Positions 11,124 through 22,602 of a stretch of 64,000 nucleotides of DNA are shown here, in pieces. The stretch covers positions 2,404-66,403 of the IMG/VR virus record IMGVR_UViG_3300021579_000001; one strand, written 5' to 3'. Made by a program: the position numbers and the translations under genes. How positions within the stretch are numbered: position 1 is the stretch's first letter; each line of letters opens with the position of its first letter. The notes beneath the pieces are model-generated. The model did not search any database and had not been told where the DNA came from. It saw only the letters and a program-made list of their open reading frames with translations. Source of the DNA: a virus.

Positions 11124-13169
11124 TTATTTGTTGTTTTCGCTAATCAACTTGATTTCACAAGCGTCTGTGGTGCAGTAAGCTTCGCCTACAGCATCCAGCG
11201 ACATTCCCTGGTAAACTCCTTCGAAGTCAATCGGGAACAACTGGTTGCCATACTCAGTGTACTCTTCCTCAGTAATCTGAGTGTAAGGCATCTGAGGGTA
11301 AACGTGGTTTCCCATTGGCAAGAAGCTGACAGTCTTCAACTGGCCATCGTACATGTGCAAAACCGTACCAACAGCTTCTGATTCTTTCTCTGCGTCAAAC
11401 GTAACCGTTACAGACACAGAGTTGTCTGACCAGTAACGCTGTGCAGTTGCAGCAAGCGACATCTTCTCGTAGATAGATACTTCTTTCTCCGAACGGCTAG
11501 CGCCACTCTTAATCGGGAAGAATACTACAGACGTTGTGTCTGGAGATTCTGACGCTGGCTCGATACGATAGTTAGCCATCTTAAACAGTTCAAGCATAGG
11601 TTCGTTGTTCGCAAAACGAATAGCCCTTAGGAAGTACTTGCCACCAGCAGTCCAGTGTACGCCAGGGCTTTCACCAGCAAGGATACTTACAGTACCTGAA
11701 GGCTTCACAGTAGTCATCTTGATAGACTCACGCACACCAAGCCACTCAGAGTAAGTAACGTCGTACGTCTTTACCGTAGCGTACCCTTCATTCATCCACT
11801 CACGTAGCACTGGTAGCCCTTGGTTATCTGCAAAGTTAGCGACACCTGAAACAGATGTTCCAATACGACGGTTACGCTGCATGATTGCGTTGGTCTCTTC
11901 CCAGTGAGTAGGAAGCAAGGTAACAGTCTTAGCGTAGAGATACGCAAACTTGAGAGTGCGCTTGAAGTCTTCCAAAGACTCGTGACGGTTCAAGTAAGTT
12001 TCTACAAGAGTGCACATCTCAAAGCTTTCTAGGCTTTGTTCTGCACAAGGGTTGTACCCTACAACACGCCAATCCTTATTATTAGGGGCGTCAATCAAGC
12101 GACCATACTGGCGCGAAACATCCATCCAAATAACACCTGGCTCACCGTTGCGGACGATGCCATCAACGATAGGTGAGAAGTCCGTTCCAACACAAACTTC
12201 CACCGAGTTGTTTGACATCCATGCCCAACCTGGGGCTTCAGGGTCATAGCTATTACGCTCAGGAAACCTTTCAGCATTTTTCAAGTTCAAGAAATCTTGG
12301 TCGTCAATACGGCCAATCAAAAGCTCCGCTGAACGACGCACGTTGCCTGATACAACACAAACACCAATGAGGTTGCCAATGTCAGCAATGTCTTTGCGAG
12401 TAAGCTTGTCTCCCTTACGTTTGCGGAACACGTTGCGGATTGCACCATGCAGTTTGAACAATGGGTCTGGACCAGAGGCTGTACCACCAAAGGTGGCAAT
12501 AGGAGAACCGTATGGACGAATCTGGTCGTAGTTAAACTCCCAAATAGGTTGTTCAGGTTTTAGGTAGCTGTTAATCAACGCAACTGTTGACTCCATCCAA
12601 CCTTCACGAGTGTCAGGGATTACATACTCTTGGAATCCTTTAGGCTCATAAATCTCAAAACCTTTATCTGCGCCCTTGTCATCAAAACCTACGCCTACAC
12701 CCAACATCGATGCTTCCATTAGGAATGCAAACGGCTTACCTGGGTTCTGCTGGGTCATTGCCTTAGTTGAAACAAACGCACAGTTCTGTAGTGCTGCTGA
12801 GTTTTTCTGAATGTTCACAATTGGGGTACCCATTACCCATAGACCGCGACCTGGTGGAGTCCACTTTAGATTGAACAAACGGTCAAATGCTTCTTTGGCA
12901 CTTGCTGCTGCCTTTGCGTCACTCCATGGCAAACGGTTCTGTTTTGCATGGTCCTTCTGTAGTGAATACATACCGTTGATTACACGTTCGCATACTTCTG
13001 CCCAAGTTTCCTTGGTGCCGTTATCTTTCTTACGACTGTATGTACGGAGGAATGTAATCTCGCCAACCGAGTTTCCTGCTACGTCTGCATAACCGAACGG
13101 TGGCTTCTTATCCCTGTATCCTGCGACAAACTCTGCCGCTAGTTGAAACGAAAACATCGTCATAACCAC
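11124..13169 (-). CDS. nrdJ: Class II (adenosylcobalamin-dependent) ribonucleotide reductase
   Basis: PPGRGLW, NC, GNVRRSA, NPCAEQ-x-L...CTL-x-E, RRIG, TVKPSGTVS, C-terminal CxxxxC. Confidence 0.95.
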   Translation of the reverse strand: MVMTMFSFQLAAEFVAGYRDKKPPFGYADVAGNSVGEITFLRTYSRKKDNGTKETWAEVCERVINGMYSLQKDHAKQNRLPWSDAKAAASAKEAFDRLFNLKWTPPGRGLWVMGTPIVNIQKNSAALQNCAFVSTKAMTQQNPGKPFAFLMEASMLGVGVGFDDKGADKGFEIYEPKGFQEYVIPDTREGWMESTVALINSYLKPEQPIWEFNYDQIRPYGSPIATFGGTASGPDPLFKLHGAIRNVFRKRKGDKLTRKDIADIGNLIGVCVVSGNVRRSAELLIGRIDDQDFLNLKNAERFPERNSYDPEAPGWAWMSNNSVEVCVGTDFSPIVDGIVRNGEPGVIWMDVSRQYGRLIDAPNNKDWRVVGYNPCAEQSLESFEMCTLVETYLNRHESLEDFKRTLKFAYLYAKTVTLLPTHWEETNAIMQRNRRIGTSVSGVANFADNQGLPVLREWMNEGYATVKTYDVTYSEWLGVRESIKMTTVKPSGTVSILAGESPGVHWTAGGKYFLRAIRFANNEPMLELFKMANYRIEPASESPDTTSVVFFPIKSGASRSEKEVSIYEKMSLAATAQRYWSDNSVSVTVTFDAEKESEAVGTVLHMYDGQLKTVSFLPMGNHVYPQMPYTQITEEEYTEYGNQLFPIDFEGVYQGMSLDAVGEAYCTTDACEIKLISENNK

Positions 13170-13281: not shown

Positions 13282-13315
13282 AGTGCCCACCATGTTTCAA
13301 GGCATGATGGGCACT
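13282..13315 (-). terminator. Stem-loop after TGT-like gene
   Basis: AGTGCCCATCATG-8nt-CATGGTGGGCACT on minus strand (one G-U). Confidence 0.55.
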
Positions 13316-13336: not shown

Positions 13337-14830
13337 CTATCTTTCCAACTTATCTTGGATAATGCTGGTGGTAGCATCGGCATCTATGACCCTTTTATTC
13401 TCTTTTGCGGCATCTACTCGGTCACCAAAAATGGCTGCCAAAACTCCCTGGCTAGCGTCCCGCTGTGCCGTGATTTGAATGAACTCTTTTTGCTCATCCA
13501 ACTCCTTCAAACTTTTCAACATCTTCAAGTAACGGTCCATCTCTTGAGACACGTTTGGGTCTGCGTATCCACCATTCAATTCTTCTGAAAACCGCATGAA
13601 TGCTACTCTCTGGGCCTGCATCTCTAGCAACGCAATGTTCATTGCCTTCAACTGGTCAGGCGTTTTTACCTCTATCGGCAGGCTAAACGCACAGGTAGTA
13701 TCTGCCTTAAATGCTGGACAGTTTGCTGCTACAAAACACGTGTTACATTGTCTCAAACTTGCCTGTTGGCTGTTTACGACAGGCACATCTTTCAACACAT
13801 CTCTGCCGTTTTCGTGCTCTACTACCTGCTTCATCTCGTACCCAAAAACAGGCATTGATGTCATCTCTAATGGGTCTCTTTGGGCCACTTCTACGCGTTC
13901 AACTTTCCGCATTGCTGACCCACTGTTATTAGAACCATCTACCCCTAAATCCATCAAACCCGTATATAGGGTATCATCACTGTTATCAGCTACTAGTGGC
14001 TTCCATGGGTGGTTATTTTCGATTGGTGCTTTGTCATTCATTGTTTTCTCTAACTGTAAATACGACCATACAGCAACTTTTGTTGCCTCTAAGGTGTCAT
14101 CATCAATAAACTTCTGGAAATCTAACCCTGATTTTTCTACGATGTTTTTGTATCGAATACGGGCTTGTGCCTTCATTTTTTTGGGGTATCGAACGAGTTT
14201 TGACCCATCCCAGATAATCGTTTCGCCTCGACGCATTGGGGATATCCAGCTCAACGTCGAGGCTGTAGTAAAAGGTATCTGACGTAGGTTATCTGGTTTG
14301 GCTACCGCTAGTCCGTGCAACACCGTCTTGTGGATGCGCACCATGTTACGGGCAATGCCTGCCAATGACTTTACTGACTCAATCGCATCGCCTGGAATAG
14401 CGATGTTCTGGTGCAAAAACCCCCACTGCTGGAGTACTGGAATGCCGTACGACTCATGCCATACCACAATCATTTTCTGGTCATTCTGGAACGGTTCTCG
14501 TTCTTTTACTACCCATTCTTTGCCCAAAACTTGGCTGTCAAACTCTACCCAGCCCTCGATACGTTCGTAGTTTAGAGCTACAAACTCTTGGTAATCTGCC
14601 GCAAACTCTTCCAGTTCTTCTCGGCTTAGGTTCGCTGCGTCTGCCTGTACCGCACCAGAATCCAACCACACCTTCATGTCAGGCAAAAAATGCTCACTAA
14701 TCAAATACGGTTTGTTCTTTGGCATACCCCGCTTACGCAATCCCCAATAGTTGAGCATTACGTTACTTGCCCCTGATTTTTCTAGCAGTATTCGGTTACT
14801 AGGAATCTCGGTGCCACTAAATACAATCAT
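13337..14830 (-). CDS. TGT/DpdA-like TIM-barrel protein with altered catalytic motif, fused to C-terminal Cys4 and helical domain
   Basis: WLDSGA, EFD, VVWH, HGL, P-F-x-x-x-[S]-x-x-SW-x4-RG pattern of phage DpdA-like proteins; CNTC-x5-CP-x7-C. Confidence 0.7.
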   Translation of the reverse strand: MIVFSGTEIPSNRILLEKSGASNVMLNYWGLRKRGMPKNKPYLISEHFLPDMKVWLDSGAVQADAANLSREELEEFAADYQEFVALNYERIEGWVEFDSQVLGKEWVVKEREPFQNDQKMIVVWHESYGIPVLQQWGFLHQNIAIPGDAIESVKSLAGIARNMVRIHKTVLHGLAVAKPDNLRQIPFTTASTLSWISPMRRGETIIWDGSKLVRYPKKMKAQARIRYKNIVEKSGLDFQKFIDDDTLEATKVAVWSYLQLEKTMNDKAPIENNHPWKPLVADNSDDTLYTGLMDLGVDGSNNSGSAMRKVERVEVAQRDPLEMTSMPVFGYEMKQVVEHENGRDVLKDVPVVNSQQASLRQCNTCFVAANCPAFKADTTCAFSLPIEVKTPDQLKAMNIALLEMQAQRVAFMRFSEELNGGYADPNVSQEMDRYLKMLKSLKELDEQKEFIQITAQRDASQGVLAAIFGDRVDAAKENKRVIDADATTSIIQDKLER

Positions 14831-15312
14831 TCGAAATTCAACGATTCTGTTCTAGTCAAACGAGCATCCTCTGTTCGCAGGATGTTCTGCTTGTGAATGG
14901 CCTGCTCGATGTCATCCCATGACCGCACACGCTTTGGCGCATCTGGGCGGAACTCTGGACGAGTGTAGTTGGGTACGCCAAACATCACTGATGGGATGCC
15001 CATGTCAAACGCAAACGCCCACATTTTAGGGTTATTAGTAATGAACAAATCCACTGGCCCACGTGCTCTAGCTACCTTAATCTGGCGCTCGGTTAGATTT
15101 TCCCCCTCCAAATGATACGAGGAATCGATGACTCTATCAAAATCAACAATCTTGTTCATGTTCAACCATTGGTTAGTTTCTGCCTCCGTCATGGGAGAAA
15201 TAAACGTCAATCGGTTATACACACTTAGGGTTCCCACCATCAAAATACCTGTGGGAATGGGCTCATCTGACGGCCCTTTTAGCACGCCTTGGATGTCAAT
15301 TAACAACTGCAT
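14827..15312 (-). CDS. HAD-superfamily-like protein with degenerate motifs
   Basis: LLIDIQGVL (motif I DxD to DxQ), LFITNN (motif IV). Confidence 0.55.
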   Translation of the reverse strand: MQLLIDIQGVLKGPSDEPIPTGILMVGTLSVYNRLTFISPMTEAETNQWLNMNKIVDFDRVIDSSYHLEGENLTERQIKVARARGPVDLFITNNPKMWAFAFDMGIPSVMFGVPNYTRPEFRPDAPKRVRSWDDIEQAIHKQNILRTEDARLTRTESLNFE

Positions 15313-15315
15313 TTA

Positions 15316-15411
15316 CTAATCCTCGTAACAATCACAACGACACTTGTCGTCTATACAAATATTTTGGTACAACTCATGCCCACATAAACGGCACGTGTCT
15401 AGTAACGACAT
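15316..15411 (-). CDS. 31-aa Cys-rich micropeptide (not in ORF track)
   Basis: MSLLDTCRLCGHELYQNICIDDKCRCDCYED; TAATG overlap with NTase stop. Confidence 0.6.
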   Translation of the reverse strand: MSLLDTCRLCGHELYQNICIDDKCRCDCYED

Positions 15412-16310
15412 TACTCGCCTGCCCTGTACAACGCTGCTCTGCGCACCATTACATCGGCACTAGGTAGGTCTACCCCGTAAAGTGTTCTGGTGTCTGTGCT
15501 TACCCTAGATTTTGCTGCATGGCTAATCTCATGTAACATCTCCAACGTGCCGTTGCGCTTAGCTGCTTGCCATCGGTAGTTGTAAAAGTCGTCGTAGCCT
15601 TGGCCCTGTGGCCCAAATGCTTCTGAACGGTTATCATGGATTTGCTGGTGCAGGGCGTTAGCTTGCTGGTATGTTGCCAACAAGGTTGCCTCTGCGTTTT
15701 TTCTTTGAGGTCCAGGGTGCAAACCTTCTAGGTCTTGTATCGCTTTGGTGGCTCTGGTGTACGCAGTTTGAGTGGTTGCGTAATCTGACGATGCCACAGC
15801 TTCCCAATCAGGGTTAACTGGAGGGGTTCTATTAGGGTCTGGAGTGACAGTCCACTCATCGTACTTTAGGTCGTACGCAGCATAAGGTTTGATACTGGTG
15901 ATGTCTGTGGCTCTTGGGTTGACATAAAAGGTCAACTCGTAACCATTCCAGTTCTCTGTAGTTGGCTGCAACCCACTACGGAACTCCTCGTTCAGTTGTT
16001 GGCTAATTTCTTTGTCCGTCAAACCTCTGTACGCAGGGTTTGCTTGCCTAAACTGCACAAAATCTACACCGACCAAGCAATCCAAATCTCCTGGTTGGCG
16101 TGCTGCGCTCCACTGATACGACACCCCTGACCCTGCTAACCATGGGTGAGACCACAGTTCTGCATGGCGGTACTTTTTTGCGAAAAAATCGCTCAACAAA
16201 TGGTTGATGCCTTGGCGAACCCACGAACGCAGGGCTCTGCCTTGGAATAACTTAGGGTCTAACTCTTGTGAGGGCTCGCTGAAATACGAGGTAGGTAGGT
16301 AACTAGTCAT
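15411..16310 (-). CDS. Pol-beta-superfamily nucleotidyltransferase
   Basis: LAGSGVSYQW...GDLDCLV, third acidic residue in YELTFYV, helical C-terminal lobe. Confidence 0.8.
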   Translation of the reverse strand: MTSYLPTSYFSEPSQELDPKLFQGRALRSWVRQGINHLLSDFFAKKYRHAELWSHPWLAGSGVSYQWSAARQPGDLDCLVGVDFVQFRQANPAYRGLTDKEISQQLNEEFRSGLQPTTENWNGYELTFYVNPRATDITSIKPYAAYDLKYDEWTVTPDPNRTPPVNPDWEAVASSDYATTQTAYTRATKAIQDLEGLHPGPQRKNAEATLLATYQQANALHQQIHDNRSEAFGPQGQGYDDFYNYRWQAAKRNGTLEMLHEISHAAKSRVSTDTRTLYGVDLPSADVMVRRAALYRAGE

Positions 16311-16320
16311 ACCACCTAGT

Positions 16321-16617
16321 TTATTCTACGGGGGTAACGCTTTCGGGGTCAAACCCGCGCTTCTTCAAGGCATCACGAACTTTGTCCTGAGGGGTGGCAG
16401 GCTGTGCTGGTGCCAGAACCTGAACCAATCCTTGGATAACTTTGCTAGCAATCATGTCGCGTTCAAAATCATCTACAATCTGGCGTGAGGTCAGGTAAAT
16501 GTCAGTGATGGTAGCTTCGTGCTCTGCTTCAGGCAAAGTCTCAGGAACATCGGTGTAACTGGTTACGGTGCCATCGTTGTGCGAAACAATCAGATAATAA
16601 GTTTTTACTTCCGACAT
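16321..16617 (-). CDS. Hypothetical protein
   Basis: TAATG coupling in operon. Confidence 0.75.
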   Translation of the reverse strand: MSEVKTYYLIVSHNDGTVTSYTDVPETLPEAEHEATITDIYLTSRQIVDDFERDMIASKVIQGLVQVLAPAQPATPQDKVRDALKKRGFDPESVTPVE

Positions 16618-17186
16618 TAGCGGTAATCTCCTCGCATTGCGCGGTGCTTAGTAGTCATTACTGAATGCATTGGGCAAAAGTTACACACGTAAATCTTTGG
16701 TCCGTCTGCATGCTCAGGTTTAGGTAGGTTTAGGTCTGCACGTTCTTTAGCTGTGTTAGGGAGCAACCGCTTCTTAGGGCTGAGATAATCATCGCAGTGG
16801 TCATCAGGCTGCAAGTGGTACTTCCAACAGCTCATCGCATCTTCTGAGAACTGCATCTTAGTTTCGTAAAACGCTTTCTCAGGGTCAAGTTCGTCTAGAC
16901 CTGTGGAGCCTCCCTTAGCTAACTGCTCAAGGATGGCTTTACGCTGCTCGTAGTTGCCCCATGCACTTACGGGTACCTTGAACAACTTTCCTACGTGGGG
17001 TTCTCCTGAAGGGAACACGTGCTTCTCAATAGTGATTGCCAATAGGTAGTCTAGGTCTGATGGACCATCGTAATCAGGTAACTCTTCCCAGGTTTGGCAC
17101 ACTAGGCAACGGAGCAACCTAATCAGTGGGCCTGAGTGCTCTTTACTGCCGATTAACGGCTTACCGTAATCATCAATTGCTGGCAT
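16617..17186 (-). CDS. Hypothetical Zn-binding protein
   Basis: CLVC...H...H; C-x3-H...C; CNFC. Confidence 0.75.
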   Translation of the reverse strand: MPAIDDYGKPLIGSKEHSGPLIRLLRCLVCQTWEELPDYDGPSDLDYLLAITIEKHVFPSGEPHVGKLFKVPVSAWGNYEQRKAILEQLAKGGSTGLDELDPEKAFYETKMQFSEDAMSCWKYHLQPDDHCDDYLSPKKRLLPNTAKERADLNLPKPEHADGPKIYVCNFCPMHSVMTTKHRAMRGDYR

Positions 17187-17347
17187 TAGTTACTCCTGCG
17201 GTCTTCTCCACGAGTCCAAATGTACACTCCCAAATGTGGGCGCTCATTGGCTTTTTTAGCGTCTTCTGCGGTAGAGGTAACACGTTCACCTTTGGTGTTC
17301 ACCCATGAGTATACCCCTGGTGACACTTCAACAACTTTTTCATCCAT
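17186..17347 (-). CDS. 53-aa hypothetical, leaderless (not in ORF track)
   Basis: MDEKVVEVSPGVYSWVNTKGERV...; TAGTAT-6nt-ATG; TAATG overlap downstream. Confidence 0.6.
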   Translation of the reverse strand: MDEKVVEVSPGVYSWVNTKGERVTSTAEDAKKANERPHLGVYIWTRGEDRRSN

Positions 17348-17365
17348 GTACCCATACTAATACAA

Positions 17366-17389
17366 AAACCCTTCCCGTAGGAAGGGTTT
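17366..17389 (-). terminator. Intrinsic terminator with UACG tetraloop
   Basis: AAACCCTTCC-TACG-GGAAGGGTTT-TT on minus strand. Confidence 0.8.
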
Positions 17390-17410: not shown

Positions 17411-17623
17411 CTATTTACCTGGGTTAACCATGTTGGTAGTAGGGTACTCGGTGGTAGCAAAACCATACCCATAGAATGGGTGTAGGGTCTGCTTGTTGTC
17501 GATAGTTTTCTCGTGGCCTTCGTGGTCCAGCACCTCGGTGTCAGGGCGAATTTTACGGTACTTTCCGTCAGTTGTGCCCTCGTGTAGGCTTTCGTTCATT
17601 GAACGGCTAGTGTTTACTGACAT
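17411..17623 (-). CDS. Hypothetical protein
   Basis: AAGGAG RBS. Confidence 0.7.
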   Translation of the reverse strand: MSVNTSRSMNESLHEGTTDGKYRKIRPDTEVLDHEGHEKTIDNKQTLHPFYGYGFATTEYPTTNMVNPGK

Positions 17624-17633
17624 TGGTAACTCC

Positions 17634-18395
17634 TTAGTTAATTGAATCTACGTACTTTTGAACCGTGGACTGGTCGCTACCTTCACCATAATCATGCACA
17701 AAACTTGGCAATGCTTGGTTCAAGTTAGTTGAGCGGACTAGGGTTCGGGCTGCATCCTTATTGTGGTTAGCTGCAACGCCCAGCAATGCCGCTGCGCCTG
17801 AGCCGTCACCCTTACGGTGTGCTTTCCATGCGTCTAGTGTGGCTGACTGGGCGCTGTTTAGGAACTTGCTGATTTTAGCGTGAACATCTGGCGTGATTCC
17901 CTGAAGTTCTAGGTGGCTATTTGCAATAGAACGAATGTTATCCGTAGCAGTACCATTGAAATGGTTGTAATCGTGGTGCGGCTCATTGGTGTTAGCAAGC
18001 GTTGCCTGAGGTGTTGGGGTACCGTACTGTGCGTCTACCTTAGATTGCAGGGTGGCAATCTTCTTCTTAAAAGCTTTAGCTTCCGCAAGGTCAGCACTAG
18101 TAGGTTGGCGAGAAGAGTTGATTGGTGGGTGCTCCCAGAAAGAGGAATCAACTTTGTTCTGCGCTTTTTTTCTAGCTTTATAGGCTGTGTCAGTGACTCT
18201 TAGCGCAGCTTTTTGTTCTGCAGTCTTTACTCGAGTCTTTGGGGCAGGTGCTGGGGCAGCTTTTACTGCACCTTTCTTAGCCGCAGGTTTAGCTGCGGTT
18301 GCCTTAGCAGCAGGCTTTGCAGGAGCTTTCTTCTCTACCACTACTTTAGTGTTTTGCTTTGCCGCGGCTAGCGCAGCCTCTACAGTGAATGCCAT
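17634..18395 (-). CDS. Hypothetical protein with histone-H1-like P/A/K N-terminus and helical C-terminal domain
   Basis: KKAPAKPAAKATAAKPAAKK. Confidence 0.75.
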   Translation of the reverse strand: MAFTVEAALAAAKQNTKVVVEKKAPAKPAAKATAAKPAAKKGAVKAAPAPAPKTRVKTAEQKAALRVTDTAYKARKKAQNKVDSSFWEHPPINSSRQPTSADLAEAKAFKKKIATLQSKVDAQYGTPTPQATLANTNEPHHDYNHFNGTATDNIRSIANSHLELQGITPDVHAKISKFLNSAQSATLDAWKAHRKGDGSGAAALLGVAANHNKDAARTLVRSTNLNQALPSFVHDYGEGSDQSTVQKYVDSIN

Positions 18396-18399
18396 TTAC

Positions 18400-20691
18400 T
18401 TATCCTTTTGGAAATGTTGCCTTTAGTTCTTCAAAGTTGTTAGGAATAGCTACGCGCTGTCCTTTTAGGTACTTCTCAGGATTCTTTTTAGCTTGGCTGT
18501 TATTCCATGCTTGGTTAGCTGCAGCAGCTTTCTCAGAAGTTTCCTGAGTGATGAGTCGGTGTGAGTATGCCCAGGTCTTGTGAGCTTTAGTGCCTTTTCT
18601 AGGCTCAGCACCAAGGGCGGCTCTACGAGTCTGCCCTTCTGCCAAAGCCGCATCAACTGCGGTTCTAACGCCAGGGTTTGCTAGGTGGAAGTGAGTGTGA
18701 GCTGCTGCCTGAATAGCTGCAGTGCGCTCTTCCTCAGGAGTTAGGCTACCAGTTGGGATGTTAGATGGAGTGCTGGCTGGGTTGTGAGTGGTGTAACGTT
18801 TAGTGCCAGCAATTTCAGTAGGTAAAGTAGAAATTCTACCTTCATCGGTAGTAACCGTCTGACCACTTGGGCTACGTTCAACGTCCTCTGGGTGAATGAG
18901 GTTGTACGCGCTAGAGGCTAGCCCAGCTCCAAACTCTGAAGTTCTGGTAGCTTTAGGGGCCACAGGAGCAAACCCACCACGCTCACGGATTTGGCTTTCA
19001 AGAACAGCTTTAGCAGCAGGGTTGCTGTCATAGTCAATAGGCTTCTTCGAATCAGCATCATACCCAAACTTAGACCGCTGGATTTCCGCAGCCTGCTCAA
19101 GCGCATTCCCCCTTCTACCTGCCTTGCTGGCGTTGATTCCAATTTGCGCGTGAAGCTCTTGGCGGGCTTTAGCAGCAGTTTCTTCTGCAGAAAGAGCTGG
19201 AACTCCTTGAGTAGAACCAGATGAGGCACCTTGTTGGGCTGCTCGTTCGCGTTGAACTGACTCGGAACGAGCAGTTTGCTCCGCTATCGCTGCACGGATT
19301 CTCTCACTCTGCGCAGCTTGGAACCCTGGACGGGCAGCTTCACGAGCAGCGTTTGCTTCATCTGCCGTTTTCTGCTGTTTAGCGGTCAAAGGCTTAGGGT
19401 TAATTCTCTCTTGTACCAATGGGTGAGTAATAGGCAACCCTGGAGTAGAAGTATCCGCCTGCACCCTCAATGGGTTCTCGCTAACAATCGACGCCATCTT
19501 AGGGAGGTTTGATGAACGATTGCCTCGCTTGAAAGCCTGTCGAGTTATGTCATAGGCAGAAATAGCCTCCATACCTTTAGCAAGGTCCAGTTTATTAGGA
19601 ACCCCACCGTTAAGGTCTGAGTCAACTTGTCCAATGATTCCTGAGCCTGGCTTACCTTTACTAGAGGCTTTGCCCACAATGTTAGAAATTAAGTCAGCTC
19701 CATTAGCTGCCTTAAAGTCTGGGTGGTGGTCTTCCAAGGTATTGGCTGCGGACTTAATGCTTTCAGAAGCTTGGCGCAAGTGGGTAACTAGGCCTGGAGA
19801 GCTTGTGTCGTACTTGCTATCTGCTGGCGCACCTCTTCTAGTGCTTCTCAAGTTTGATGGGTCCATAGCTGGTCCATCGTTAAATCTTCCCTCTAGGTAA
19901 GCGATACCCGCATTACCGATAGAGTTATTGGCTCTGCGTAGGTGACCGCGCAAAGTGGCGTATTCTGCGCTGTTTCCTTTAGGGTCCAACTCATTTAGGT
20001 GGTTTTCCAAAAGGTCGTGCAAAGCTCCGAGTGAGGCCATAGGGTCTGAGCTTAAGCGCTTGTGGTTAGGACCAGTGTACATCTCTGTTACAGGAGCGAG
20101 GCCTGGTCTATCGGCAACTTTTTTGCCAAGCCAGCTCTGTTCACTTACGTTCCAGTGACCCTGACTGTTGTCAACAGGAGCAGCATCTTCAGCCTTTTTC
20201 TTTTTTATGTAGCCTTGAGCTCTAGAGCCACCATAGTTTTGTGCACTTTTAGCACTTTCGTAGTGAGCCTGCTCTTCTTCAGGGGTCGAAGCATACTCGG
20301 CAAATGTTCCTGCTCTGCGGTGGTCTTCAATCTCGTCATCAGACATGCCTCTGAACTGTTTAAAAAACTTTGCTTTAGCGTTCTTAGTAGTTTGTTCGTT
20401 AGTACTCTTGGTAAACTTTTTTCCACCTAAAGGAACTTGAACACCGCTACCAAAACTAGCCCCAGCACCTTGTAGAGTCTTAACAACTGACCTTACAGTT
20501 GTGTCCTTTACTCGTGAAACTGTGCCATCGGCATTGCGCTTGGCAGTGACTGGCTTTGAGCTTTGGCCCAGAATAGCCGTAGTTGCTTCTACTTTTTTAG
20601 ATTTTGGGCGTGAACGCTTTAGCCCGTCAATGATGGCCTTGTCTTCTTTAGGGTTTACATCGCCTTCGCGGTTGAAATCTTCAGCAGCCAT
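18400..20691 (-). CDS. Large low-complexity protein (possible internal virion/ejection protein)
   Basis: 763-aa A/S/G/K-rich ORF with no Cys, coupled to neighbours. Confidence 0.7.
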   Translation of the reverse strand: MAAEDFNREGDVNPKEDKAIIDGLKRSRPKSKKVEATTAILGQSSKPVTAKRNADGTVSRVKDTTVRSVVKTLQGAGASFGSGVQVPLGGKKFTKSTNEQTTKNAKAKFFKQFRGMSDDEIEDHRRAGTFAEYASTPEEEQAHYESAKSAQNYGGSRAQGYIKKKKAEDAAPVDNSQGHWNVSEQSWLGKKVADRPGLAPVTEMYTGPNHKRLSSDPMASLGALHDLLENHLNELDPKGNSAEYATLRGHLRRANNSIGNAGIAYLEGRFNDGPAMDPSNLRSTRRGAPADSKYDTSSPGLVTHLRQASESIKSAANTLEDHHPDFKAANGADLISNIVGKASSKGKPGSGIIGQVDSDLNGGVPNKLDLAKGMEAISAYDITRQAFKRGNRSSNLPKMASIVSENPLRVQADTSTPGLPITHPLVQERINPKPLTAKQQKTADEANAAREAARPGFQAAQSERIRAAIAEQTARSESVQRERAAQQGASSGSTQGVPALSAEETAAKARQELHAQIGINASKAGRRGNALEQAAEIQRSKFGYDADSKKPIDYDSNPAAKAVLESQIRERGGFAPVAPKATRTSEFGAGLASSAYNLIHPEDVERSPSGQTVTTDEGRISTLPTEIAGTKRYTTHNPASTPSNIPTGSLTPEEERTAAIQAAAHTHFHLANPGVRTAVDAALAEGQTRRAALGAEPRKGTKAHKTWAYSHRLITQETSEKAAAANQAWNNSQAKKNPEKYLKGQRVAIPNNFEELKATFPKG

Positions 20692-20909
20692 TAGACCATT
20701 TTTCCTTTAACTCTTTTAGCTCTACGGGAATCCCCACATGGAGGGCACAGACCTAGGGTGCTGTACATAAATTCTGTAGGGTTCATGATGATGCCACACT
20801 GTGGGCACATCCTACTGCCTCTATACATAGTACCATTTGTATTGGCTACATTTTTGGCAATCTTAAACGCCTGTAACTCTAGGGTCTCTGCCCCATCACC
20901 ATCAAACAT
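20691..20909 (-). CDS. Zn-ribbon protein
   Basis: CPQC...CPPC; start moved to ATG 20909 overlapping upstream stop. Confidence 0.6.
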   Translation of the reverse strand: MFDGDGAETLELQAFKIAKNVANTNGTMYRGSRMCPQCGIIMNPTEFMYSTLGLCPPCGDSRRAKRVKGKMV

Positions 20910-22602
20910 TTCTACCCTTAGGTTTACGAGTACGTTTAGGCTTAGGCTTAGCTTCCTCAGCGTTGCGCTCACGAGCACTGGGGGCAGAAACTTGAGCGTT
21001 GTACTCGTCGTAAGCCGCTTTTTGCGCGTCAGTCATACCAGGCTTAGTGCGGCCTAGTCGTTCCATAACCTGAGCGCGACGCTCTTCACGAGTGCCCGAA
21101 ATGGCGGGCTTTACGTCTGCAGCTGAGTTTGAAGGCACCGCTGTAGCTCGGCCTCTCTCAGTTTCAACAGGAATTCCCACGCGAACTAGGGTACCGTTTA
21201 CTCGTCTATACGCAGGTTTGCCATCAGCGGTTACCTGCTCTTCAAAAGGAATTTTGACAGGCTTGTTACTGCTCACAGATACAGGCTCCGAGGCCATTTC
21301 ACCGCTATTAAATCTACTTCTAGAAGGCTTACCAGAGGTTTCCCCACTGCTCCACCCGCCACGCATAGCGTCTTCATTGATGGTTCGCCCTGTCTGGGCT
21401 TCCTTCATGTACTTTCTAATCTTTAGATAGTCTTGGTGTTGCTTAGATGCTTCGGGGTGCGCTGCTAGCCAGTCTTTATCCGCGGTGTCACTGAGCGCGT
21501 ATTGACGCAAAGCTGCAGGCGAACCAGCTCGAGCACGAGGGTTACCAATCCAGACATGCCCAGGTTTTGACAACCCTCCTTGAGGGTGGTCTTCTTGAAC
21601 ACTTCCATAGTCGTTCTTGACTACGCCCATGTCACCTAGGTTATCGGCAACCTGAGTGATTCCCTGCTTTGAAACTCCAGAAGGTAGAACTCCTAGTTTT
21701 CCTAGAGGGGTTCGTGAAAGTCTAGTGAGCTCTCGGGTTAGGTGAGACGCAGCACGACGAATGTGGCTAGCTGCTAGGTCTGTGTTTGAGTTTGCGTTAG
21801 CTTTTTTAGCTGCAGAAAGATAGCTGTCTGCTTCTACAAGGTCATTACCAGAAACGTCAGGTCTGCCACCCGATGTACGCCCATTGTTGGTTAGCTCTAG
21901 AGCATCCACAAGGTTTTTCACATGGGCAGCATGAGGCTTGCCAATAACTGCGCCAAGAGTTCTTGCTTGGGTGACGTGGTGCGCAATTTCTCTATTAGCA
22001 ATGCCAACTCTGTCTGAGATGTGCTGTCTAATGGCAGCGTGGGCAGCTGTTAGCGCAGCAATAGCTTCAGTAGTACCTGTCTGCTTAAATGATGCAGGCT
22101 CTCCAGAACCCTCTACTCCTGCTCTTGCTACAGAAATTTTATCAGAGATTAGTTGCTTCTGTTCCGCTGCAAGGTGCTTGTCACTAGGCCCAGCAGATTC
22201 TGCTGCGTTTCCGATAACTACGTCTTCTTTTACTGCGGCTCTTCTGTTTCGGTAGCCTGCTACGGCAGGAATCGCAGCATCTCCAGAGGTTCTGCGACTT
22301 GGTGAAGAAGGCGTTTCACCACTAATGGTTAGCCTAGGGTTGCTACCCGCAATAGACAGCCCCTCTAAGTGGGTGTTCTGTTGACGTGGAGTTAGAGAGG
22401 CGAACTCGTCAGCAGTAATGTATGGGGTACCGATACGCTGGGTTACCTGAGGGTAAATCTTTTGCATGTGAGCAATTTGGTCACCTCTGGAAAGGCCACC
22501 AAACTCTTCTTGAGTAATTTTTGGGTCACCAATACGTGAGGCATCTACTGCACCTGTGTGTTTGCTAACAGTGCCCTTAAAGACGTCTGAATTGCCTGCC
22601 AT
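20902..22602 (-). CDS. Large low-complexity protein (possible internal virion protein)
   Basis: 566-aa A/G/S-rich ORF with no Cys, basic C-terminus. Confidence 0.7.
   Translation of the reverse strand: MAGNSDVFKGTVSKHTGAVDASRIGDPKITQEEFGGLSRGDQIAHMQKIYPQVTQRIGTPYITADEFASLTPRQQNTHLEGLSIAGSNPRLTISGETPSSPSRRTSGDAAIPAVAGYRNRRAAVKEDVVIGNAAESAGPSDKHLAAEQKQLISDKISVARAGVEGSGEPASFKQTGTTEAIAALTAAHAAIRQHISDRVGIANREIAHHVTQARTLGAVIGKPHAAHVKNLVDALELTNNGRTSGGRPDVSGNDLVEADSYLSAAKKANANSNTDLAASHIRRAASHLTRELTRLSRTPLGKLGVLPSGVSKQGITQVADNLGDMGVVKNDYGSVQEDHPQGGLSKPGHVWIGNPRARAGSPAALRQYALSDTADKDWLAAHPEASKQHQDYLKIRKYMKEAQTGRTINEDAMRGGWSSGETSGKPSRSRFNSGEMASEPVSVSSNKPVKIPFEEQVTADGKPAYRRVNGTLVRVGIPVETERGRATAVPSNSAADVKPAISGTREERRAQVMERLGRTKPGMTDAQKAAYDEYNAQVSAPSARERNAEEAKPKPKRTRKPKGRNV

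Follow-up and report, generated by a model that had tools for sequence, protein, structure and literature searches.

The stretch of DNA analysed here, referred to as the window, comprises 64,000 nt of the IMG/VR virus record IMGVR_UViG_3300021579_000001, whose parent genome is complete, 91.3 kb long and provided with terminal repeats. Its minus strand carries a compact block of seven genes (13337-17347), the last of which encodes a 497-aa protein of the DpdA/TGT family, which unites the DNA preQ0 insertases (DpdA) and the tRNA-guanine transglycosylases (TGT). The catalytic nucleophile of these enzymes is missing from the DpdA-like protein, and the gene is constantly accompanied, across a large lineage of phages, by one for a small protein of the haloacid dehalogenase (HAD) fold whose own nucleophile is not conserved. 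The elements of the locus are listed below in the direction of transcription; ORF stands for open reading frame, NTase for nucleotidyltransferase and RNR for ribonucleotide reductase.

17411-17623, minus strand: p70, a conserved 70-aa protein, just upstream of the terminator and outside the span singled out in an earlier note on this DNA
17389-17366, minus strand: strong intrinsic-terminator-like hairpin separating p70 from the 53-aa ORF, with 10 pairs (5 of them G-C) and a T-rich tail
17186-17347, minus strand: 53-aa ORF, the first gene past the terminator, poorly conserved
16617-17186, minus strand: p189, a Cys-rich protein of 189 aa, probably zinc-binding
16321-16617, minus strand: p98, a conserved 98-aa protein without family match
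15411-16310, minus strand: NTase, a 299-aa nucleotidyltransferase of the Pol-beta fold, an accessory member of the block
15316-15411, minus strand: 31-aa six-Cys micropeptide, present in a sub-clade only
14827-15312, minus strand: HAD-like protein of 161 aa, PNKP-type, its stop overlapping the start of the DpdA-like gene (ATGA)
13337-14830, minus strand: DpdA/TGT-family protein of 497 aa, composed of barrel, linker and Cys4/helical domain
~13282-13315, minus strand: imperfect hairpin without T-run, read from the sequence, between the DpdA-like and RNR genes
11124-13169, minus strand: gene for a B12-dependent RNR, the next beyond the DpdA-like gene and the hairpin

The genes of the block are joined by 1-nt overlaps, by one 4-nt ATGA overlap or across gaps of 3-10 nt. 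The earlier note, made from the sequence alone, had described seven tightly coupled minus-strand genes, and all of these ORFs were found in place; the terminator which it put at 17366-17389 was likewise recovered, in the terminator scan and in the sequence itself. The hairpin which it described before the RNR gene (nrdJ) is present, but in the imperfect form given above, and it is not among the sites listed by the terminator scan. A leaderless promoter could not be verified: scanning for the sigma-70 consensus returned no site upstream of 17347, and 3 sites in the region, fewer than the 7.9 in shuffled sequences.

A DpdA homologue without its nucleophile

No model of Pfam, NCBIfam or PADLOC matched the 497-aa protein or any of 93 diverse relatives, and the same three libraries contained no match for any of the seven block proteins. 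Sequence searches of the PDB returned nothing useful, whether started from single proteins or from family profiles, and the sole library to recognise the protein did so through phrog_887 ('queuine tRNA-ribosyltransferase'; E 1.4e-59). An AlphaFold2 (AF2) model, built on the 93 diverse homologues, predicts a (beta/alpha)8 barrel over residues 1-266 with a predicted local distance difference test (pLDDT) score of ~97, followed by a disordered linker and a moderately confident C-terminal Cys4/helical domain, the Cys4 motif of which (C362, C365, C371, C380) is invariant. When the model was compared with the PDB by Foldseek, the top 50 hits were all TGTs. An exhaustive VIA-align search gave Z scores of 16.9 for ArcTGT, 16.4 for the DNA preQ0 insertase DpdA (7ui4), 16.2 for Cap10, 15.9 for bacterial TGT and 14.4 for QTRT2, and unrelated TIM barrels scored 13.2 or less.

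Profile comparison by hhalign with the DpdA1 proteins of Iggy, JenP1, Vid5, VpKK5 and phiFN37 (98.5%, E 3.2e-15, ~240 columns) paired LDSG of the family with LDSG, PVWH with PCFH, LHG with VHGFG and SvSStSW with SCDSSSW. Ordinary DpdA genes were also reached by tblastn from gp021 of Bacillus phage BCD7, which acts as a bridge sequence. The homology of the 497-aa protein to phage DpdA is genuine. Its family falls into 874 clusters at 50% identity, a number which exceeds 1,500 at 90%; in public annotation BRock gp36 and GiJojo gp181 are named queuine tRNA-ribosyltransferase, DpdA-like, and members are otherwise hypothetical.

In TGT and DpdA alike the nucleophile Asp is reportedly invariant, and the D256A substitution abolishes the activity of Salmonella DpdA (PMC10164549). 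The residue aligned to it (D256 in DpdA, D280 in TGT) is Ser191 in the DpdA-like protein. Of the 182 unique proteins which the IMG/VR loci supplied, every one has Ser, Ala or Gly at this position and none has Asp. Residue statistics were extended to metagenomic sequences through ~140 representatives, drawn from the 150 best-scoring of the 874 clusters at 50% identity, among which S, G, A or T was found and Asp in a single one (P0136). The only members of the phrog_887 family bearing the Asp are BCD7 gp021, P0136 and the barrel protein of Bacteroides phage BS162P1. The alteration of the TGT-like active site, suspected in the earlier note, is hence a property of the whole lineage.

The rest of the pocket is conserved, with E8, [D/E]57, E96, D98, H125, H172 and W195 maintained in both deep clades of the lineage. 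At the position of the general acid/base (DpdA D95, in LDSG) the sequence reads D57-S58-G59, and the family has mostly D or E and in some cases H or Y. The base-recognition Asp and His motifs are kept as E96-x-D98, W124-H125 and H172-G173 (compare D130 and H181-G182 in Salmonella DpdA, where H181 may match either H125 or H172). The lineage shares the common TGT-type barrel and aligned motifs with proteins of the DpdA1 type (Pseudomonas phage Iggy, Enterobacteria phages 9g and JenP1, Pantoea phage Vid5), but differs from them in that the Asp of SCDSSSW is Ser, Ala or Gly, that FolE, QueC, QueD and QueE are not encoded nearby, and that the 497-aa protein adds the linker and Cys4/helical domain of ~230 residues.

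The absence of que genes, noted earlier for the window, holds for the complete 91.3-kb genome, in which searches for QueC, FolE (GTP cyclohydrolase I), QueD/PTPS, the YhhQ importer, radical SAM proteins and Pfam TGT models were all negative with positive controls. QueC was likewise found in 0/41 near-complete relatives, the BCD7 control being positive. Since the nucleophile Asp is replaced and these phages lack genes for the synthesis or import of 7-deazaguanines, canonical double-displacement base exchange is not to be expected of the DpdA-like protein.

A different condition is met with in the Asp-bearing relatives. BCD7 gp021 shares with the 497-aa protein both the barrel (27% identity) and the diagnostic Cys4 domain, CNTCxxAxxCPxxKxDxxCAF, and adjoins FolE, QueC, QueE and QueD. 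In BS162P1, the Asp-bearing barrel and the Cys4 domain are encoded separately, by the neighbouring genes BS162P1_00087 and BS162P1_00088, with a QueC homologue directly upstream. These proteins belong to the same subfamily as the 497-aa protein; unlike it, they keep the Asp and adjoin que genes, and they are accompanied by neither the HAD-like protein nor the NTase. A search for the HAD-like gene in BCD7, BS162P1 and phiFN37 was negative, and P0136 lies on a contig of 1.8 kb, too short for its context to be read. Judged from these sequences, BCD7 and BS162P1 look like the ancestral catalytic state, and an ordinary DpdA pathway is the probable starting point of the lineage.

The three consecutive genes of BS162P1 (L225:3052-5483) for QueC, the DpdA-like barrel and the Cys4 protein are all annotated as hypothetical; they are probably an unrecognised 7-deazaguanine module.

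Inteins occur in the DpdA-like family at three sites, of which one follows E203 of the conserved GET hairpin (GE|T204) and the other two are at the Cys4 residues C365 and C380. The intein-bearing sequences are P0204, P0190, P0200 and P0150, relatives of the 497-aa protein, together with L087:6271-7878; LAGLIDADG domains were present where these were scanned, and the 'long' members of 854-865 aa are intein-bearing proteins, not fusions. Insertion at these sites marks the GET hairpin and the Cys4 motif as strongly constrained. In the Cys4/helical domain (residues about 340-470; window 13337-14400), weak matches to phrog_6902, 'terminase small subunit', were obtained for 10/93 members (best E 2.6e-4); the DpdA-like gene lies ~59 kb from the TerL candidate. 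The matches are a lead only, towards a role of this domain in DNA binding or oligomerisation.

Companion genes across the lineage

A total of 224 loci was collected and their ORFs were searched iteratively with the proteins of the window. Counts refer to those loci whose DpdA-like protein is unique and which extend 6 kb or more upstream, i.e. 89 from freshwater phages and 59 from BRock-like phages (148 together). The lineage consists of freshwater phages of ~91-98 kb (clade A) and soil BRock-like phages of ~100-116 kb (clade B), the two clades being about 30-40% identical. A further locus search with P0122 returned only the already known clade.

The HAD-like protein, p189 and p70 are encoded in every locus (89/89 freshwater and 59/59 BRock-like for each; 148/148). 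Neither of the two outcomes which the earlier note named as refuting its reading was observed: the genes are co-conserved in relatives, and the genome holds no que genes elsewhere. The gene for p98 was recovered in 137/148 loci (freshwater 79/89, BRock-like 58/59), with p189 invariably on one side and the NTase or HAD-like gene on the other, and that for the NTase in 135/148 (freshwater 88/89, BRock-like 47/59). Gene order is constant, running p70 .. p189 - p98 - [endolysin] - NTase - HAD-like - [gp37] - DpdA-like, with p70 always upstream of p189. The bracketed genes belong to clade B, where an endolysin gene lies between p98 and the NTase (L001:3265-4197 and many other loci) and a variable gp37 separates the HAD-like from the DpdA-like gene.

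The structural neighbours of the HAD-like protein in the Atlas are HAD_PNKP (PF25109) and Acid_phosphat_B (TM 0.60-0.64), and its profile weakly matches the HAD structure 3u26 (E 0.1). It resembles the PNKP phosphatase domain in its HAD Rossmannoid fold and similar size, and in that Asp+2, Thr, Arg/Lys and the motif IV Asp are mostly kept (in the family, Asp+2, Thr39, Arg82 and Asp94). It departs from PNKP at the motif I nucleophile, position 6, which in clade A is S in 36 proteins, E in 27, D in 14 and F in 11, and in clade B V in 31, T in 12 and A in 6; the protein of the present phage has D6 together with Q8, and N94 in motif IV. The degenerate HAD site recognised in the earlier note is thus confirmed at family level, and because the motif I Asp is not conserved, the aspartyl-phosphate mechanism is unavailable. 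As far as conserved residues can tell, the HAD-like protein appears to mirror the DpdA-like protein, with the covalent nucleophile lost and the pocket retained.

The NTase is of another kind. In 36 diverse homologues G60-S61-G62 and D75-L76-D77 are invariant, E125 is conserved in at least 90%, and a C-terminal cluster of H225, R228 and K251 is invariant or nearly so; the GS..DxD..E signature reported in the earlier note is intact throughout the family. The AF2 model (pLDDT 93) has a two-lobed NTase fold, the neighbours of which in AFDB and BFVD are nucleotidyltransferases (E 1e-27 to 1e-8). Comparison with the PDB gave weak matches to ANT and to cGAS/DncV-like nucleotidyltransferases (CD-NTases), at E 8.6e-3 or worse, and no Pfam model matches the protein. 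Among relatives of its family, fusions to amidoligase, acetyltransferase, M23, Zeta-kinase or NUDIX domains are common. A wide VIA search with the model was swamped by helical-bundle matches to the C-terminal lobe, and gp015 of BCD7, a 'nucleotidyltransferase' considered as a possible relative, proved unrelated. The idea that the NTase is the centre of the module was not borne out: the gene is missing from 13/148 loci. It is also absent anywhere in six 100%-complete genomes which keep the rest of the block, which makes it an accessory and not a hub. The protein belongs to an unmodelled phage family of the Pol-beta fold; going by its motifs and distribution it is putatively catalytically competent and would be a dispensable add-on.

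Among the smaller proteins, p189 conserves C27-x2-C30, C120, H124, C131 and C168-x2-C171 in 165 unique homologues, one of which carries a LAGLIDADG intein. Its Atlas model (pLDDT 0.38) was not usable and gave neither neighbours nor a fold assignment, and p98 had no family match in the libraries searched. The 31-aa peptide shows the motif CxxCGHELYxxxCxxDxCxCxC in the relative UFOVP223, an uncultured Caudovirales phage, and in about 25-30 of the 89 close loci, and this recurrence of the six-Cys pattern identifies the ORF as a real gene; its absence from the BRock-like clade confines it to a sub-clade. The 53-aa ORF was found in 3-4 loci only.

The block lies within a region devoted to DNA and nucleotide metabolism, with genes for replication, recombination and a dNMP kinase on one side and the RNR gene on the other. 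On the minus strand, genes for tail and baseplate, a DnaC-like loader, DnaB, a helicase, SSB and DNA polymerase I are followed by those for a UvsX-like recombinase, an exonuclease, a dNMP kinase, RuvC and several large unknown proteins, and then by p70, the terminator, the block and the RNR gene. UFOVP223, which is a close relative, encodes WhiB, pointing to actinobacterial hosts. The only cultured phages with homologues are those of the Streptomyces BRock group, and a megablast search against cultured phages gave no matches.

Possible roles of the block

The reading which we prefer, and hold tentatively, is one of exaptation, in which a DpdA that no longer transglycosylates is paired with a pseudo-phosphatase. 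The block is the conserved core of a large actinobacterial phage lineage, anchored by a DpdA homologue which keeps the TGT barrel, the base pocket ([D/E]57-S-G, E96-x-D98, H125, H172-G173) and the invariant Cys4/helical domain, and which would most likely bind DNA or a guanine-type ligand in that pocket without catalysis. Its constant neighbour is a PNKP-type protein of the HAD fold, similarly disarmed but with the phosphate-binding residues kept, and the two products may associate physically; p189, p98 and p70 travel along with them and would share in a task in phage DNA metabolism, to which an active NTase would be optional. A comparable fate is known from QTRT2 (QTRTD1), the TGT-fold paralogue matched at Z 14.4 and termed 'non-catalytic subunit' in its PDB entry, in which the catalytic Asp is gone and the remaining function is one of binding and dimerisation. 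QTRT2 partners the catalytic QTRT1, whereas this phage encodes neither a TGT nor a DpdA of the catalytic kind.

It is conceivable, if doubtful, that the association goes further, and that two enzymes of the covalent-Asp type, turned nucleophile-less and pocket-keeping, form with the zinc protein an obligatory, undescribed machine directed at DNA. Such a machine might carry out a modification other than 7-deazaguanine or a glycosylase chemistry, or act as a base-flipping reader in replication or packaging.

Several observations weigh against exaptation as a joint, non-catalytic module. The endolysin gene inside the BRock-like block means that it is not a clean, single-purpose operon, and in one lineage with extensive synteny co-conservation alone is no proof of a joint pathway. 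Every nucleophile-less member belongs to this one lineage, and the loss of the Asp, the loss of que genes and the gain of the HAD-like gene are therefore a single, unreplicated evolutionary event. Complex prediction for the DpdA-like and HAD-like proteins gave a score of 0.00, which speaks neither for nor against binding, and p189, p98 and p70 are without assignable fold or function. Moreover, a pocket so strongly conserved could equally mean a still-active enzyme of altered chemistry.

This last point leads to the rival which survives best, although we regard it as rather unlikely: the DpdA-like protein would still be an enzyme, a hydrolytic or dissociative N-glycosidase or transglycosylase in an undescribed modification of DNA or nucleotides, with water or another group filling the space beside the small residue 191 and with the HAD-like protein and the NTase acting on precursor or product. 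The purifying selection on E8, [D/E]57, E96, D98, H125 and H172 in both clades is in keeping with this, as are the restriction of position 191 to the small residues S, A, G and T, the nearly invariant, family-specific acidic E/D203 targeted by inteins, the intact motifs of the NTase, and the setting among DNA and nucleotide metabolism genes, beside the RNR gene. However, E8 and E203 are also present in the Asp-bearing BCD7 gp021 and are therefore not compensating novelties, and position 57 varies between D, E and H even among close relatives. Of the supposed auxiliary enzymes, the HAD-like protein is without nucleophile and the NTase is dispensable, and no base-synthesis genes are recognisable.

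An unlikely alternative, somewhat behind altered chemistry, is that unrelated core genes of one lineage have simply stayed together, with no joint pathway or complex. The lineage-wide constancy of order would follow from this, and the unrelated endolysin, gp37 and 1-kb inserts interleaved in clade B, the loss of the NTase while the rest stays and the restricted distribution of the 53-aa ORF and the six-Cys peptide all agree with it. What it leaves unexplained is the pairing at the end of the block: the HAD-like and DpdA-like genes are adjacent or near-adjacent in 148/148 loci, down to ~30% identity and with translational overlap in clade A, both products have lost the nucleophile and kept the pocket, and phages with Asp-bearing members of the family are without the HAD-like gene.

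A module acting on RNA or tRNA seems quite improbable; in it the TGT-like protein would hold an anticodon loop, the HAD-like protein a 3'-phosphate end, and the NTase would supply nucleotides, so that tRNAs are protected or repaired in the face of host anticodon nucleases. The TGT superfamily ancestrally binds tRNA, the fold of the HAD-like protein is nearest to PNKP phosphatase domains, and the tRNAs encoded by the phage include Asn(GTT). Nevertheless, the nearest profile homologues of the DpdA-like protein are the DNA-acting DpdA proteins and not the tRNA TGTs, both would-be repair enzymes are without their catalytic nucleophiles, and the block holds no recognisable ligase or kinase and an NTase which is optional.

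Counter-defence is still more improbable, whether as a decoy or sponge taking up a nucleotide or nucleobase immune signal in the retained base and phosphate pockets or as a mimic of Cap10 from type IV cyclic oligonucleotide-based antiphage signalling systems (CBASS). The structure of Cap10 bound to a CD-NTase ranks near the top of the fold comparison (Z 16.2), the Cap10-CdnD system pairs a TGT-fold protein with a Pol-beta-fold NTase as is the case here (bioRxiv 10.1101/2025.04.06.647259), and the weak PDB matches of the NTase include CD-NTases. On the other hand, Cap10 scores no better than ArcTGT, DpdA and bacterial TGT. Cap10 keeps its Asp248 and needs the QueC-like Cap9 and a Gly-rich N-terminus of the CD-NTase (bioRxiv 10.1101/2025.04.06.647259); Cap9, the Cap10 Asp and the Gly-rich N-terminus are all absent here, the NTase starting with MTSYLPTSYF and being dispensable in the lineage. 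Finally, the genes form part of the core of an old lineage, which sets them apart from typical anti-defence genes with their fast turnover, and PADLOC models are unmatched.

An ordinary DpdA pathway, by which phage DNA would receive preQ0 or a related base supplied by the host, can be regarded as excluded for this lineage, with barely a trace of probability left to it, for although 'singleton' DpdA-only phages relying on host precursors have been described (PMC6884629) and databases name BRock gp36 and GiJojo gp181 as DpdA-like queuine tRNA-ribosyltransferases, the nucleophile Asp is missing in every member of the lineage, no importer was found in the genome, and Mycobacterium, the sole actinobacterial genus discussed, is without any Q-pathway genes (PMC6884629), though the host of this phage may differ.

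The exaptation reading, if correct, would provide a natural example of the reuse of a nucleic-acid-modifying enzyme, with the ancestral catalytic state visible in BCD7 and BS162P1. It also carries a caution. DpdA has been proposed as a signature protein of 7-deazaguanine DNA modification (PMC10516641), and a DpdA-like family with neither catalytic Asp nor precursor supply means that annotations of this kind would over-predict modified genomes; DpdA homology should be used with care as a signature of 7-deazaguanine genomes. The family is abundant in freshwater and soil actinophages, and it is open to direct testing in phages of Streptomyces which are in culture, namely BRock, GiJojo, Alone3 and LuckySocke. 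In the literature no account was found of the lost nucleophile, of the absent precursor pathway or of the conserved set of partners, and nothing specific was found on BRock-like phages.

Some minor features of the genome surround the block. Two large proteins of 763 and 566 aa (window 18400-22602), encoded between the replication genes and the block, are unmatched in Pfam, PHROGs and NCBIfam. They are followed by an Ala/Lys-rich protein of 253 aa (window 17634-18395), the slot of which is taken in the UFOVP223 relative (L005:4453-5598) by a protein of 381 aa in which an N-terminal DnaJ domain is combined with a long region rich in Pro and Ala. Beyond the right end of the window, a small tRNA cluster (genome 87428-88610) encodes Met(CAT), Gly(TCC) and Asn(GTT), together with an 89-nt tRNA-like gene to which ARAGORN assigned a four-base anticodon (cagg).

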